Origin: Bacilli bacterium
GTDB taxonomy: Bacteria; Bacillota_I; Bacilli_A; RF39; UBA660
NCBI GenBank assembly: GCA_030531695.1
Contig: JAUNMV010000003.1
Span: forward strand, 1 to 60,033
Direction: 5' to 3'
DNA length: 60,033 nucleotides
Shown one piece after another: positions 20,214 to 49,514 of the stretch. The position numbers and the translations under genes are program-made. Below the pieces are notes generated by a model. That model was not told where the DNA came from. It saw only the letters and a list, made by a program, of their open reading frames with translations, and searched no databases. The number at the start of each line of letters is the position of its first letter. The first letter of the stretch is position 1.

Positions 20214-20963
20214 TTAAGAATTTTCTTCACAAAGATATTTTTGAACAGCATCACTATTATCAGTACCATTGATGAATACTTTTAATACTTGTGTAGAACC
20301 AGTTCCTAAGTTACCACCAGCAGTAGTATTGTTGTCAGCTGTAGCTAAGATACTCTTACCAGTTGTAGTAGAAACATCAGCTCTTCTGATATCTTTGTCA
20401 GTTTTCCAAGCGTTAATACCATGAACTCCATCTGTTAAAACGATTGAGAATGTAGTTTTAGCATTTCCAGTTGAACCAGTTCCAGCACCAGATCCTGTTA
20501 CGTTAATTCTAACAACACCAGTTACAGCTCTATTAGCCCAAGAAGAAGTTCCTCCTTGTTGTAATAGATATGGATATGGTCTATAAGTTTTACCATCTAA
20601 GTTTGGTGTTACAGTTGTATCTTTTTTAGGAGAACCATATTTGTTTCCTTGTTTTGCACTATCTATTAATACATAGTAGTTTCCATCATTTAATCCTGAT
20701 GGTACAGTTGCAGGAGCATTATCTGCACTTCCTGTTCTACAATAGAATGAGTCAGATAACCACATTGTTCTAACTGCTGAAATATAGTTTTGTGCTGTGT
20801 TCATGAATGTATCTCTACGAGTATTTTCAATTGTTCTTGAAATTGCTGGAATAGCAACCATCATTAAGATACCCATGATTGTAATAACTGCTAATAACTC
20901 GATTAATGTAAATCCGCCTTGTTTTCCTTTCTTATTATTTTTTCTCTTTGCATTTTTTGCCAT
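20214..20963 (-). CDS. Type IV pilin-like protein (prepilin-type N-terminal cleavage/methylation domain), candidate major pilin
   Basis: Basic leader MAKNAKRKNNKKGKQG, then FTLIELLAVITIMGILMMVAIPA (Gly at -1, Phe at +1, Glu at +5). Gly/Thr/Ser-rich globular part with two Cys. Local G+C is visibly higher than in the neighbours. Confidence 0.8.
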   Translation of the reverse strand: MAKNAKRKNNKKGKQGGFTLIELLAVITIMGILMMVAIPAISRTIENTRRDTFMNTAQNYISAVRTMWLSDSFYCRTGSADNAPATVPSGLNDGNYYVLIDSAKQGNKYGSPKKDTTVTPNLDGKTYRPYPYLLQQGGTSSWANRAVTGVVRINVTGSGAGTGSTGNAKTTFSIVLTDGVHGINAWKTDKDIRRADVSTTTGKSILATADNNTTAGGNLGTGSTQVLKVFINGTDNSDAVQKYLCEENS

Positions 20964-21072
20964 AATAATTCACTCTCTTCCTTTCTATTATTATTACATT
21001 TTAAATATAGCATATTGAAATTTATTTTTCAATACATTTTTTTTACATTTACACTGATATACAAATTTGACA

Positions 21073-21693
21073 TTATGCTGTATATCTTTTATCTACTGGA
21101 CAGTTAAATGTAGACCCATCTTCATTAGTAATTTGGATAGAAGTTGGTGTCGTATCATTAACCTTTATTGGTTCAGTAGTTATACCTGTTTGTGCATAAT
21201 CAATTGGTGAATCATCCTTTATACGACTAAATCTTGTCAATGGGATACCTGAAAATCTTGTTTTAGAATAAATATATTCTACTAATTGTACATGATACTC
21301 ATACTTTACAGTTGATCCTCCGCCTATTCTTCTAATAACTACAAAATTATTCAATTCTGTGTCATAAGTTTTTGTTTGTGGTTCTTTATCTTTTCCAGTA
21401 TAAGTATAAGAACCTCCGTATGGAGCATTTTTAAATTCACCTGATCCTAAGTATTTCATATTCATAATAATACAATGATCAGCCGCAGGTTTAACAATAG
21501 AAGTATCACTTCTAAACTTATATTCTGCTGTTGTAACTAATTTTTCTGCATCTCTTGCATATGTATTTAATTTAGTACTTTGTAAAATACCAATTATATT
21601 AGGAGCTGCTATCATTGTAAGTAATCCTAATATAACTAAAGCTGCTAATAATTCTACTAATGTAAAACCTTTTTTCTTTTGTTTTAATTTCAC
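21073..21693 (-). CDS. Type IV pilin-like / pseudopilin protein (206 aa)
   Basis: MKLKQKKKG|FTLVELLAALVILGLLTMIAAP class III signal. GTG start after AGGGTGA. Confidence 0.75.
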   Translation of the reverse strand: MKLKQKKKGFTLVELLAALVILGLLTMIAAPNIIGILQSTKLNTYARDAEKLVTTAEYKFRSDTSIVKPAADHCIIMNMKYLGSGEFKNAPYGGSYTYTGKDKEPQTKTYDTELNNFVVIRRIGGGSTVKYEYHVQLVEYIYSKTRFSGIPLTRFSRIKDDSPIDYAQTGITTEPIKVNDTTPTSIQITNEDGSTFNCPVDKRYTA

Positions 21694-21749
21694 TTTCTCA
21701 CCCTACTTTCTATTTTAATTATAGATAAAGTTTATAAAAAATAAAAGTA

Positions 21750-22815
21750 TCAGTTTAAAATTTGATGTAAATTAATTACTTCTTTTTTTACACTATCATT
21801 ATCATTATTTATTAAATTATCATATCTAAATATACTAAAGCCTTTATAATTTGACATATTTCTAGATATTATTATTTCTCTTTTTATAATATCATTATTA
21901 TTAATCCATTCTTCACTACCACTTAAAGCATACTTATCAAGGTTACCTGACTTATAGAGTGATAAAGCTACTATTAAATCTATATTCTTATTTTTAATAA
22001 TACTATTCCATTCATTTACTACTTTGTAAAAAGGCATCTTTTCATTATAGAACCCATAATATAGTTGAGGCATTATAAAATCTACATATTCATTACTATC
22101 TAACCATTTATAAATATCTGCATATAACTTCTCATAATTATTATTTATATTACCATCTGGACTTACTCCAAATAATATATTTTTATATTTACAGGTTTTA
22201 TGTACTCTACTTATCATTTTATTTATTATATTTAAATGATAAATTTTAGAATCAATATAACCATTCTCTTCTATATACTTTGTATAATCTAAATAATCTA
22301 TATCAGGTGATGGATAAAAGTAATCATCAAATAATATTCCATATACTTTATAATTATCAATTATCTCTTCTACTCCATTTACTATTAGATCTTCTACTTC
22401 TTGTTTACTAGGATTATAAAATATCCCATTATTAATATATAGATAATCCGTATTTAGGTATTTATAAGCTGGATTATTTATACTAATAGAATTTATATCT
22501 ATTGTAGTTCTTACTCTATAAGGATTTATCCAACAAATAATTTTTATATTATATTTAGAAGATACTTCTATAAAGTAATCTAATACATCAAAATATTCTT
22601 CTCCTTCTTCTATATTTAAATTCATACTAGTTGGATAAATACTAGATTTATATATTGAATCACTATTAGATCTTACTTGTAGTATTACAGTATTTAGTTT
22701 ATTATTATAATTCTATATAACTTATAAAGATACATCTTAATTCTTCTTTAGATGTAGTTTTAAATCCACATAAAAAAAATACTATTAGTATAGTTATTAA
22801 AATTATTTTTTTCAT
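21750..22815 (-). pseudogene. Disrupted glycosyl hydrolase-like family 10 (GHL10/DUF187, YngK-like) lipoprotein gene
   Basis: A 36-codon ORF (22705..22815) encodes the signal peptide MKKIILITILIVFFLCGF...EELRCIFISYIEL and then hits TAA TAA TAA. The catalytic-domain frame (NYNNKLNTVILQVRSNSDSIYKSSIYPTS-MNLNIEEGEE...) is open from 22712 in a different frame. Confidence 0.55.
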
Positions 22816-47901: not shown

Positions 47902-47921
47902 TTTAATCACATCCTTACTAA

Positions 47922-48713
47922 TCATAAATCAAGTGATTTTAAATTATTATTTTTTATTTCTTTATCTATGTATTCTTTTATTCTTTGTTCTCTTGTTTCT
48001 TCTAGTTCTACTACTTCTTTATTACTATAGTTAACACCTTGTAACATATTTAGATAACTAGCTATAGAAGAATCAGTCATGTCTTTATCTTCGTATACAT
48101 AGATATTTACTCCACTATAGTTATCTTTATTTTCATATATAGATAAGTAATTATTAAGTATTTTCATACCTATTACTTTAGCTTTATATTGATTAATTTC
48201 TTCATCTTCAACATTTAACTTTTCTATTAATTGTTTTTGTATTTCTTTTAAATCTAGCATGTATTCTAATTGGTAGTATCCTCTTACTACTCCTGTATAT
48301 ACTTTTGCACCATTATCTTTAAAAGTATTATCATTCATTATAAACTGAAAGTTTTCTTTAATCTTTTTTTCTACATTACTAGCATACTTATTTTGTTGTT
48401 TTACATAAGTATCTAGCTTATTATCTTTAATTGCTTGATCATTTGGTTTTTCTCTCATATAGCAATCTGGACCAGTCATCAAATAATTACCATCTATTTT
48501 ATCTACATTAATATATTTTGATAGTGATTCTTTACTAGAACCATTTATTACTAATTGATTAATTTTATTTAATTTCTTTTCTACTGCACTGCTTTTTGAT
48601 GATTTTACAATTATTAGTATTAGTGATGCTATTAATAAAATTGCTGCTGTTACTACTAATATAATAATTAATATTTTATTAATTTTATTTTTATTTTCTC
48701 TTTTCTTTTTCAT
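47922..48713 (-). CDS. Bitopic membrane protein, paralog 2 of a tandem pair upstream of the giant pilin
   Basis: N-terminal TM segment ILIIILVVTAAILLIASLILII. Shares LVINGSSKE..., MTGPDCYM, YQLEYM and YLNMLQGVNY with its neighbour. AAGGAG RBS. Confidence 0.55.
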   Translation of the reverse strand: MKKKRENKNKINKILIIILVVTAAILLIASLILIIVKSSKSSAVEKKLNKINQLVINGSSKESLSKYINVDKIDGNYLMTGPDCYMREKPNDQAIKDNKLDTYVKQQNKYASNVEKKIKENFQFIMNDNTFKDNGAKVYTGVVRGYYQLEYMLDLKEIQKQLIEKLNVEDEEINQYKAKVIGMKILNNYLSIYENKDNYSGVNIYVYEDKDMTDSSIASYLNMLQGVNYSNKEVVELEETREQRIKEYIDKEIKNNNLKSLDL

Positions 48714-48716
48714 AAA

Positions 48717-49514
48717 CTACTCCTTGAACTGTAATGTTTCAATATTTACACTATTATTATTTTTAGCTTCTACTATATATTCTTGTAGTCTTTTATTTTT
48801 CTTAATAACATCTTCTTCAATAATCTCTTCATTATGATAATTAATTCCTTGAAGCATATTTATATACGATATAATTGATTGTTTAGTTTTATCTTTGTCA
48901 TCTTTATAGTCATATAGAATAGCTAAGCAATTTTCATCTTTATTTACATAGTAATCTAGATGACTATCTAATATCTTTAATGCAAGTACTTTAGATTTAT
49001 AATTATTTAGAGTATTGTTTTCTAATGATGAGGCAAGTAATACTTTCTTTTGTAATTCTTGTAGATCTTCTAAGTAAGTTATTTGATAATAAGATTTTAA
49101 TAATACTTTATAAACTTTACTGTTATCTTCTTCTTTAATATCTTGTACTGTTGCGTTAAAATTACTTTTAATCTTATTTTCTACATTTTTAACTAGTTTA
49201 TTTTGTTCTTCTATATATGCATCTATATTTTCATTGTTTATTTCACTTTTATCTGGATATAGAGCCATATAAGAATCTGGTCCAGTTAATAGTATTCTTG
49301 AATCTATTTCATCAATTCCTGTTAATGCAATTATTTCTTCTTTTGTACCGCCATTAATTAATAAAGTATTTAATTCTTCTATCATTTCTTTTGTTTCTTT
49401 AGTATTATCTTTTGAATCAAATTTTATTACATTACATAGTATTATTCCTAAGAATATTACAATTAAAATGCTTATTATTATTTCTAATATTAATCTAATC
49501 TTACCTTTATTCAT
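48717..49514 (-). CDS. Bitopic membrane protein, paralog 1 of a tandem pair upstream of the giant pilin
   Basis: N-terminal TM segment. LLINGGTKEE, LTGPDSYM, YQITYL and YINMLQGINY. AGGTGAG RBS. Confidence 0.55.
   Translation of the reverse strand: MNKGKIRLILEIIISILIVIFLGIILCNVIKFDSKDNTKETKEMIEELNTLLINGGTKEEIIALTGIDEIDSRILLTGPDSYMALYPDKSEINNENIDAYIEEQNKLVKNVENKIKSNFNATVQDIKEEDNSKVYKVLLKSYYQITYLEDLQELQKKVLLASSLENNTLNNYKSKVLALKILDSHLDYYVNKDENCLAILYDYKDDKDKTKQSIISYINMLQGINYHNEEIIEEDVIKKNKRLQEYIVEAKNNNSVNIETLQFKE

Follow-up and report, generated by a model that had tools for sequence, protein, structure and literature searches.

Modular pilins, whose N-terminal pilin module is joined to an extra module that is not specific to type IV pili, number more than 1,200 proteins in 264 architectures, and a protein of 860 amino acids has been called the 'most extreme case' of their size (Raynaud et al. 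2021, PMC8179133). Minor pilins of the CofB/TcpB type are thought to be located at the filament tip and to initiate assembly (PMC8179133). Here we analyse a 60,033-bp stretch from a Bacilli bacterium, the entire contig JAUNMV010000003.1 of assembly GCA_030531695.1 (hereafter the window; GC content about 26%), which encodes two small pilins, P1 and P2, and two giant pilins, P3 and P4, the latter pair being modular pilins as just defined. We consider it probable that all four are subunits of one type IV pilus, with P1 and P2 forming the filament, P3 and P4 serving as modular minor pilins and the assembly machinery encoded elsewhere in the genome. The four genes are as follows, a hyphen marking the predicted cleavage site.

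20214-20963, minus strand: P1, type IV pilin of 249 amino acids (N_methyl 32.4 bits; TIGR02532)
21073-21693, minus strand: P2, type IV pilin of 206 amino acids with a GTG start, MKLKQKKKG-FTLVELLAA (N_methyl 33.9 bits)
36432-38747, minus strand: P3, modular pilin of 771 amino acids, MRNRKG-FTLVEVLV (N_methyl 36.1 bits)
44980-47901, minus strand: P4, modular pilin of 973 amino acids, MKKINKKA-FTMVELLAV (N_methyl 22.5 bits)

P1–P4 share a short basic leader, the motif (G/A)-FT(L/M)(I/V)E and a hydrophobic stretch. A six-frame regular-expression scan of the 60 kb found exactly four open reading frames (ORFs) with the class III prepilin motif, in each case at the N terminus of a long ORF and on the minus strand, which carries nearly all genes of the window; a looser pattern (Gly/Ala/Ser, four residues, Glu, hydrophobic run) added only two obvious false positives. 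All four proteins score above the cut-offs of Pfam N_methyl PF07963 (22.5-36.1 bits versus 21.2) and NCBIfam TIGR02532 (21.3-31.5 bits versus 16.3). Since the census finds just these four in six frames and the profile scores exceed the cut-offs, the motifs are not the product of chance. A preliminary description of this DNA had placed four prepilin-type genes at these coordinates and proposed scoring them against PF07963; ORFs, motifs and both profile families agree with it.

P1 has a leader of 17 residues, MAKNAKRKNNKKGKQGG-FTLIELLAV, and its predicted processed N-terminal peptide is (Me)FTLIELLAVITIMGILMMVAIPAISR. Gly14 and Pro22 in mature numbering, which are typical of filament-forming pilins, are present in P1, P2 and P3. 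Between P1 and its orthologues mature residues 1-50 are 76-78% identical and the remainder 36-40%, so that, judged from sequence, a conserved α1 helix carrying a variable head follows the classical pilin pattern. A consensus scan and a hairpin scan marked two putative expression signals around the gene, the first of which precedes the ribosome-binding site GGAAGAGAG.

21004-21032, minus strand: promoter-like site before P1, TTGAAA, 17 nucleotides, TG-TATATT (pattern match only)
20182-20203, minus strand: terminator-like hairpin with T-run between P1 and nfo

Terminator-like sites were observed three times, against 0.3 expected in shuffles, and the putative hairpin between P1 and nfo would make P1 its own transcription unit. 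The α1 conservation, the Gly14/Pro22 pair and the promoter-like site, ribosome-binding site and terminator-like hairpin of P1 together fit filament-forming pilins.

The P2/P1 locus recurs in related genomes, whose loci are given L numbers below. The window reads dnaG-sigA-trmK...yetF-GHL10-P2-P1-nfo-PBP2, and downstream of dnaG-sigA-trmK the order yetF-GHL10-(two to four N_methyl pilins)-nfo-PBP2 is found in L171-L173 (SigA 93-94% identical to that of the window) and in L027 and L041 (96% over a partial match); the yetF-GHL10-pilin part is also present in L064, L065 and L073. A pilin occupies the orthologous position of P1 in L027, L041 and L171-L173, P2-type orthologues stand directly after GHL10 in L027, L064, L065, L073 and L171-L173, and the low-GC loci L037, L045, L046, L050, L053, L055, L059, L069 and L074 have one to four small pilins immediately before nfo. 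P1 is a candidate major pilin of this conserved nfo-linked locus, and P2 its second conserved pilin type.

P3 and P4 place long arrays of additional domains behind the pilin module, as the preliminary description had recognized in calling them giant pilins.

38343-38747, minus strand: pilin module of P3 (residues 1-135)
P3 to about residue 360, minus strand: two beta domains of the family type
36978-37664, minus strand: three Flg_new repeats of P3 (residues 362-590; Pfam E = 2e-28, 3 stretches)
P3 residues 590-771, minus strand: C-terminal domain with no family match
47497-47901, minus strand: pilin module of P4 (residues 1-135), with Cys98/Cys122
45691-47181, minus strand: five 71-residue Cys-containing repeats of P4 (residues 241-312, 454-524, 525-595, 596-666 and 667-737)

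The N-terminal 235 residues of P3 are 27% identical to P4 (E = 5e-8), P3 residues 245-350 match P4 residues 309-438, and about the first 350 residues of P3 are shared with a larger family of giants, with 28-31% identity to its members P0028, P0046 and P0086. The Flg_new repeats of P3 start at residues 371, 447 and 521; we take Flg_new to be the Listeria-Bacteroides repeat IPR013378. For P4, an AlphaFold2 model built from the family alignment (predicted local distance difference test score, pLDDT, 81.6) comprises a helix over residues 11-61 (51 residues), a small β-sheet and then about ten immunoglobulin (Ig)-like β-sandwich domains, for which Foldseek returned only generic Ig-array matches such as the GhpA grappling hook, DSCAM and α-2-macroglobulin. 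P4 contains no Pfam domain except N_methyl, its 71-residue repeats having no Pfam signature, and phmmer found no PDB match for the C-terminal region of either P3 or P4. Both giants had been credited with adhesin-type modules: this holds for the Flg_new repeats of P3, whereas the 'HYR-like' modules of P4 remain below threshold, with an HYR match in 1 of 26 relatives (E = 5e-5) and a similarity to OmpL47-type barrels of 32.8 bits against a cut-off of 40. From the types of these extra modules we infer an adhesive role for P3 and P4.

The design had also been put forward as possibly undescribed, but it is already catalogued, including N_methyl with IPR013378: Dataset S1 of PMC8179133 lists the architecture IPR012902-IPR013378-IPR013378 for 9 proteins, and IPR013378 occurs in it 20 times. 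P3 and P4 resemble the modular pilins of Streptococcus sanguinis, PilB with its vWA module and PilC with its lectin module, in the class III signal, the small pilin module bearing unrelated modules, the monoderm host and the predicted role in adhesion. They differ from these and other catalogued members in size (771 and 973 residues, with relatives reaching about 2000, against the extreme of 860), in the P4 modules without database signature, in gene positions outside a pil cluster and in the presence of several giant paralogues per genome. CofB and TcpB, the type IVb pilins of enterotoxigenic Escherichia coli (ETEC) and Vibrio cholerae, likewise have a pilin module followed by β-repeat or β-sandwich domains, but belong to clustered genes of diderm type IVb systems, carry two such domains where P4 has about ten in series, and show no detected sequence similarity. 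What is new here is how large and how numerous the family members are, the Cys-containing Ig-like repeat of P4 that carries no database signature, the occurrence of modular pilins in RF39-type bacteria and the scattering of what is apparently a minimal machine.

The giants form a large family. P4 has 170 homologues, nearly all of 600-1500 amino acids and with an N-terminal N_methyl match, from gut metagenomes or metagenome-assembled genomes (MAGs) labelled 'Bacilli bacterium'; an exhaustive search with P4 residues 1-240 yielded 863 representative clusters at E ≤ 1e-10, most of them 450-2000 amino acids long and nearly all aligning from their own first residues. Across 26 aligned members the only N-terminal invariants are mature Phe1 and Glu5, Gly(-1) is at least 90% conserved, and the conserved head region of about 130 residues contains a Cys pair (Cys98/Cys122 in P4). 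In type IV pilus biology Glu5 is needed for assembly, not for membrane anchoring. A profile of the N-terminal 140 residues, P3 included, matches solved pilins over α1, among them Geobacter PilA-N (8.6e-13), S. sanguinis PilE1 (8pfb; 3e-11), MshA, Neisseria PilE and GspG, and an AlphaFold2 model of the isolated pilin module (pLDDT 84.9) predicts a helix at residues 11-61 and strands at 73-77, 104-110 and 113-119. Giant paralogues stand in tandem in some genomes, with three in L003 and five in L071. In further relatives the pilin module is joined to choline-binding repeats (P0015) or ChW repeats (P0109-P0116), and across P0015, P0109-P0116, P0061 and P0075 the extra modules are choline-binding repeats, ChW plus BNR repeats or thrombospondin type 1 repeats; the same stem thus carries modules of very different kinds, some of them usually linked to the cell wall.

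Genes for an assembly machine occur in relatives of the window. The SigA protein of the window is 92% identical to one named for Candidatus (Ca.) Faecimonas intestinavium. Gilroy et al. 2021 assign this genus to family CAG-611 of GTDB order RF39 and give its type genome as about 1.4 Mb with 28% GC, so that an RF39-type bacterium is the most likely source of the window. In L059, an Erysipelotrichia-labelled MAG, pilB is divergent from two minor-pilin-like genes, followed by four paralogous pilins of 167-188 amino acids, nfo and PBP2. A metagenome scan with the L059 ATPase recovered 80 loci, 11-12 of which have PilB and then convergent PilD and PilC; PilD-PilC leads into trmK-sigA-dnaG in L091, L105, L114 and L144 and into sigA-dnaG in L097, and these loci also have two minor pilins beyond PilB and SigA proteins 73-81% identical to that of the window. 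By Pfam, PilB of L018 and L033 matches T2SSE at E ~1e-120, PilC of the lineage has two T2SSF domains and PilD combines A24_N_bact with Peptidase_A24. Two MAGs (L043 and L032/L105) have machinery on the same contig as giant-family pilins. In GCA_018715925.1, the MAG of Ca. Onthousia faecipullorum, a window-like yetF-GHL10-pilin locus lies on contig DVKQ01000028 (L073), and PilB and two minor pilins lie on a second contig, DVKQ01000046 (L170), beside ylbJ and ylbL, a context for PilB that recurs on a 1.52-Mb contig (L086). Because the maps of these relatives can be joined, an ancestral array dnaG-sigA-trmK-pilC-pilD-(pilB)-two minor pilins-...-major pilins-nfo-PBP2 is likely, of which the window retains both ends without the middle.

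The machinery of this lineage resembles the type IVa pili of Firmicutes (Clostridium, S. sanguinis) in its PilB/GspE-like ATPase, PilC/GspF-like platform, bifunctional-type A24 peptidase and Gly14/Pro22 pilins, and differs in loci without adjoining PilM/N/O or PilT, a short PilB and an extended PilC; it may be a minimal type IV pilus machine. Its genes are dispersed, as in diderm type IVa pili. The match of PilB to GspE spans positions 105-485, the usual N-terminal domains being absent, and in some species PilB ends in a 200-residue Pro/Thr-rich tail, while PilC has an N-terminal extension of about 180-440 residues with extra transmembrane segments and an acidic coiled region (L091 7429-9960, L144 4182-5948, L018 18770-20071, L033 3498-5363). 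Among the 120 best PilB matches, all from one clade, identity is 79% or more, compared with only 30-46% for the pilins of this lineage. In about 1.3 Mb flanking 79 pilin loci of GTDB species representatives, a scan with PilB/C/D/M/N/O seeds from six classical Bacillales loci found PilB in three low-GC loci only and PilC, PilD and PilM/N/O in none. A Walker-A regular expression was rejected as a PilB finder after returning mostly ABC-transporter false positives.

Such a small set of ATPase, platform and peptidase in a monoderm is also what the Com pilus uses (ComGA, ComGB, ComC and ComGC-GG), and P1–P4 could instead be parts of a Com pseudopilus or of a secretion pseudopilus like that of the type II secretion system. 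Weak NCBIfam matches to ComGC/D/E/F and GspG/H over the N-terminal helix point the same way, but they reach only 16-28 bits against ComG cut-offs of 49-80 and 17-27 bits against 88.85 for GspG, and are confined to the α1 helix that all these proteins share. The comGA-GG operon order is missing from the window, the pilins are far larger than those of the Com pilus and score below its equivalog models, and the lineage ATPases (L091, L018) and platform score best against GspE/PilB and GspF/PilC, above ComGA/ComGB, in NCBIfam. Com and type II secretion pseudopilins contain nothing comparable to the adhesin-type modules, and the gene set of the window is of monoderm type, with PBP2, RodA, LytR and a sporulation sigma factor; we judge this role very improbable. 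Nor does the window contain a Flp-type motif, a TadE/F N terminus or CpaF/TadB/TadC, the marks of a Tad/Flp (type IVc) system. The 'pilin' cluster of the TANB77 clade was rejected as the same system, being Tad-type (PMC11680825); its pilin illustrates the medical interest that pili of uncultured gut clades already attract (PMC11680825). A complete Tad-type locus, a separate system resembling that cluster (PMC11680825) and absent from the window, lies a few kilobases downstream of nfo in L045 (14187-18759), with two TadE-like genes, a CpaE-like ParA ATPase, CpaF, TadB and TadC.

With P1–P4 as subunits of one type IV pilus, a prepilin peptidase would cut the short basic leader after Gly or Ala at position -1, and Phe1, Glu5 and the hydrophobic α1 helix would incorporate P1 and P2 into a filament that PilB and PilC drive. 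P3 and P4 would dock through their small pilin modules, most likely at the filament tip, and project their Ig-like and Flg_new rods of 640-840 residues outwards as adhesins. The PilB-type ATPase, PilC platform and PilD peptidase would be encoded elsewhere in the genome, the ancestral cluster beside dnaG-sigA-trmK having been broken up by rearrangement in the clade of the window, and the many divergent giant paralogues could supply a variable adhesin repertoire.

Several results weigh against this reading. The other ORFs of at least 90 amino acids in the window are housekeeping genes by Pfam (tmk, lepA, ftsK, efp, PBP2, nfo, trmK, sigA, dnaG, yqeH, addAB, rpmF and rodA), with no T2SSE, T2SSF, Peptidase_A24 or PilM/N/O among them, and a six-frame hmmsearch with lineage-specific profiles found neither PilB, PilC and PilD nor remnants of them in the window. 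In three relatives whose SigA is 93-94% identical they are equally missing within 10 kb of the pilin loci; the 120 best PilB matches include no ATPase from the clade of the window or from prevalent close relatives; and PilC and PilD were not located in that clade or in the Onthousia-type clade, with about 20 kb per relative covered. No PilM/N/O or PilT was seen near any machinery locus of the lineage. P4 has Ala rather than Gly at position -1, a residue already allowed by the (G/A) motif of the preliminary description, and Thr rather than Pro at mature position 22. Foldseek matched the model of the isolated pilin module to the PDB only at E ~1, with SH2-domain noise, so the α/β pilin fold, although a helix and small β-sheet are predicted, is not confirmed by structure comparison. 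Long Ig-like rods are, moreover, also what a membrane-anchored, wall-spanning adhesin would need. The preliminary description had pointed out the lack of assembly genes; this is correct for the window and local to it, relatives carrying PilB, PilC and PilD at syntenic junctions.

The missing machinery could mean that the clade has lost PilC and PilD, and perhaps PilB, leaving the four genes as relics or as co-opted, unprocessed bitopic surface proteins. The site at which more distant relatives keep PilC-PilD-PilB is empty or taken by other genes in the window and in relatives of 93-96% SigA identity, no trace of machinery survives in the window, and PilC and PilD were never found in its clade. 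Against such loss, all four ORFs are intact, two of them with 771 and 973 codons in a genome of 26% GC where random ORFs are short, the cleavage/assembly motif and the α1 helix are conserved between species, and P1 still has a promoter-like site, a ribosome-binding site and a terminator-like hairpin. A highly conserved PilB and two minor pilins survive in a MAG whose arrangement is broken in the same way, and the inspection covered only about 20 kb per relative. We regard orphaned genes as an improbable outcome.

The rods of P3 and P4 bear on a different alternative, in which the proteins are displayed without a filament: the class III signal would be a processed membrane anchor or build a very short pseudopilus, P3 and P4 would be wall-spanning adhesins, and PilB/C/D would act as a general display device comparable to the archaeal bindosome. 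Serial Ig-like domains over 640-840 residues, and up to about 2000 in relatives, are enough to cross a Gram-positive wall; the large paralogue families, five in tandem in L071 and three in L003, the cell-wall-type modules of some members (choline-binding in P0015, ChW in P0109-P0116) and the minimal PilB/PilC/PilD machinery with no PilM/N/O/T nearby would also suit it. However, the family shows an invariant Glu5 and a conserved pilin head with a Cys pair, the small P1/P2-type pilins keep a highly conserved α1 and a dedicated locus, as expected of a real filament, and the characterised modular pilins, S. sanguinis PilB and PilC and ETEC CofB, are filament subunits (PMC8179133). The bindosome likewise consists of large functional surface proteins with a prepilin-type signal, but has its own Bas machinery, and the lineage ATPase matches BasE only faintly (32.9 bits against a cut-off of 1000) and is not a member. 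Display without a filament is, in our estimate, unlikely, and a filament bearing P3 and P4 as minor subunits remains our preferred reading.

A broader idea, which we offer as speculation with little expectation that it will hold, is that RF39-like Bacilli use a minimal, dispersed set of PilB/PilC/PilD as their main display route for a large and rapidly evolving set of giant class-III-signal adhesins of 450-2000 amino acids, several per genome. If true, the giants might be interchangeable tip adhesins, or rods that are anchored in the membrane, span the wall and never make long filaments, and the route would be to bacteria what the bindosome is to archaea, in the role that sortase-anchored proteins have elsewhere. 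RF39-type Bacilli are prevalent, uncultured, reduced-genome gut bacteria whose cell surface is essentially unknown; the window suggests an investment in type IV pilins, and its giant pilins are candidates for surface antigens and for adhesins that bind the host or glycans. The stepwise break-up of trmK-pilC-pilD-pilB-minor pilins-major pilins-nfo would clearly exemplify the scattering of pilus genes in a monoderm. Conceptually, the result adds to known biology and opens no new category.

The genes around P3 and P4 include several small membrane-anchored proteins.

35920-36462, minus strand: bitopic protein of 180 amino acids with only a weak CARDB-like match, overlapping the end of P3 by 31 nucleotides
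47922-49514, minus strand: two paralogous bitopic proteins of 263 and 265 amino acids, 42% identical, between rpmF and P4

The 180-residue gene is probably co-transcribed with P3, the pair being bracketed by hairpins at 38823-38848 and 35894-35919. An alternative ATG for P4 at 47925, which would give a leader of 16 residues, overlaps the stop codon of the upstream 263-residue bitopic gene (ATGA), suggesting translational coupling between the two. The 263- and 265-residue paralogues have no Pfam or NCBIfam match, and homologues of them occur only in the nearest relative (L003-L005), which has a third copy flanked by two giant pilins; their link to the pilins is positional, and a functional one is possible. 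Small anchored genes follow giant pilins in 13 of 61 cases, often after gaps of 9-32 nucleotides, but they come from unrelated families, and a cognate bitopic partner family was rejected. A further bitopic protein of 184 amino acids without family match (50288-50842, minus strand) lies beside yceD-rpmF, at the same position as in L003 and L013, and has homologues in L015, L016 and L035.

Two tandem genes elsewhere in the window share the Flg_new repeat with P3.

30605-31798, minus strand: Flg_new paralogue of 397 amino acids
31814-32992, minus strand: Flg_new paralogue of 392 amino acids

Their N-terminal halves are near-identical (a 300-nucleotide direct DNA repeat of 88% identity), and both carry a single Flg_new repeat and differ in their C-terminal domains, one of which is weakly like a phage head spike-fibre domain. 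As both begin with ordinary signal anchors and have no class III signal, they were rejected as pilins. Two groups that the preliminary description had counted into the system find no support as parts of it, these paralogues and the flanking bitopic proteins, which are neither one family nor consistently linked to giant pilins. Its three accessory insertions are not supported either: the P2/P1 locus is conserved in the lineage, P4 occupies a conserved giant-pilin slot between rpmF and addB that holds three such genes in the nearest relative, L003, and the look of a variable hot spot is confined to the site of P3. Homologues of the N-terminal domain of the 397/392-residue paralogues occupy, in L003, the site taken by P3 in the window.

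Further genes were noted in passing. A protein of 716 amino acids with BspA-type leucine-rich repeats (LRR_5) and no recognisable signal peptide (12519-14669, minus strand) adjoins small bitopic and unassigned genes at 14678-15339. Between yqeH and dnaG, L171 (1326-8151; SigA 93%) has two VWA proteins of more than 1000 amino acids with ordinary signal peptides, one of them also with Flg_new; as the interval is filled there and empty in the window, it is another variable surface-protein slot. A SigE/SigK-like, sporulation-type sigma factor is encoded at 29544-30242 of the window, and in L006 (8452-9917) a SpoIIGA-type peptidase (Peptidase_U4) adjoins such a sigma factor, a hint that these gut Bacilli with reduced genomes have sporulation genes.

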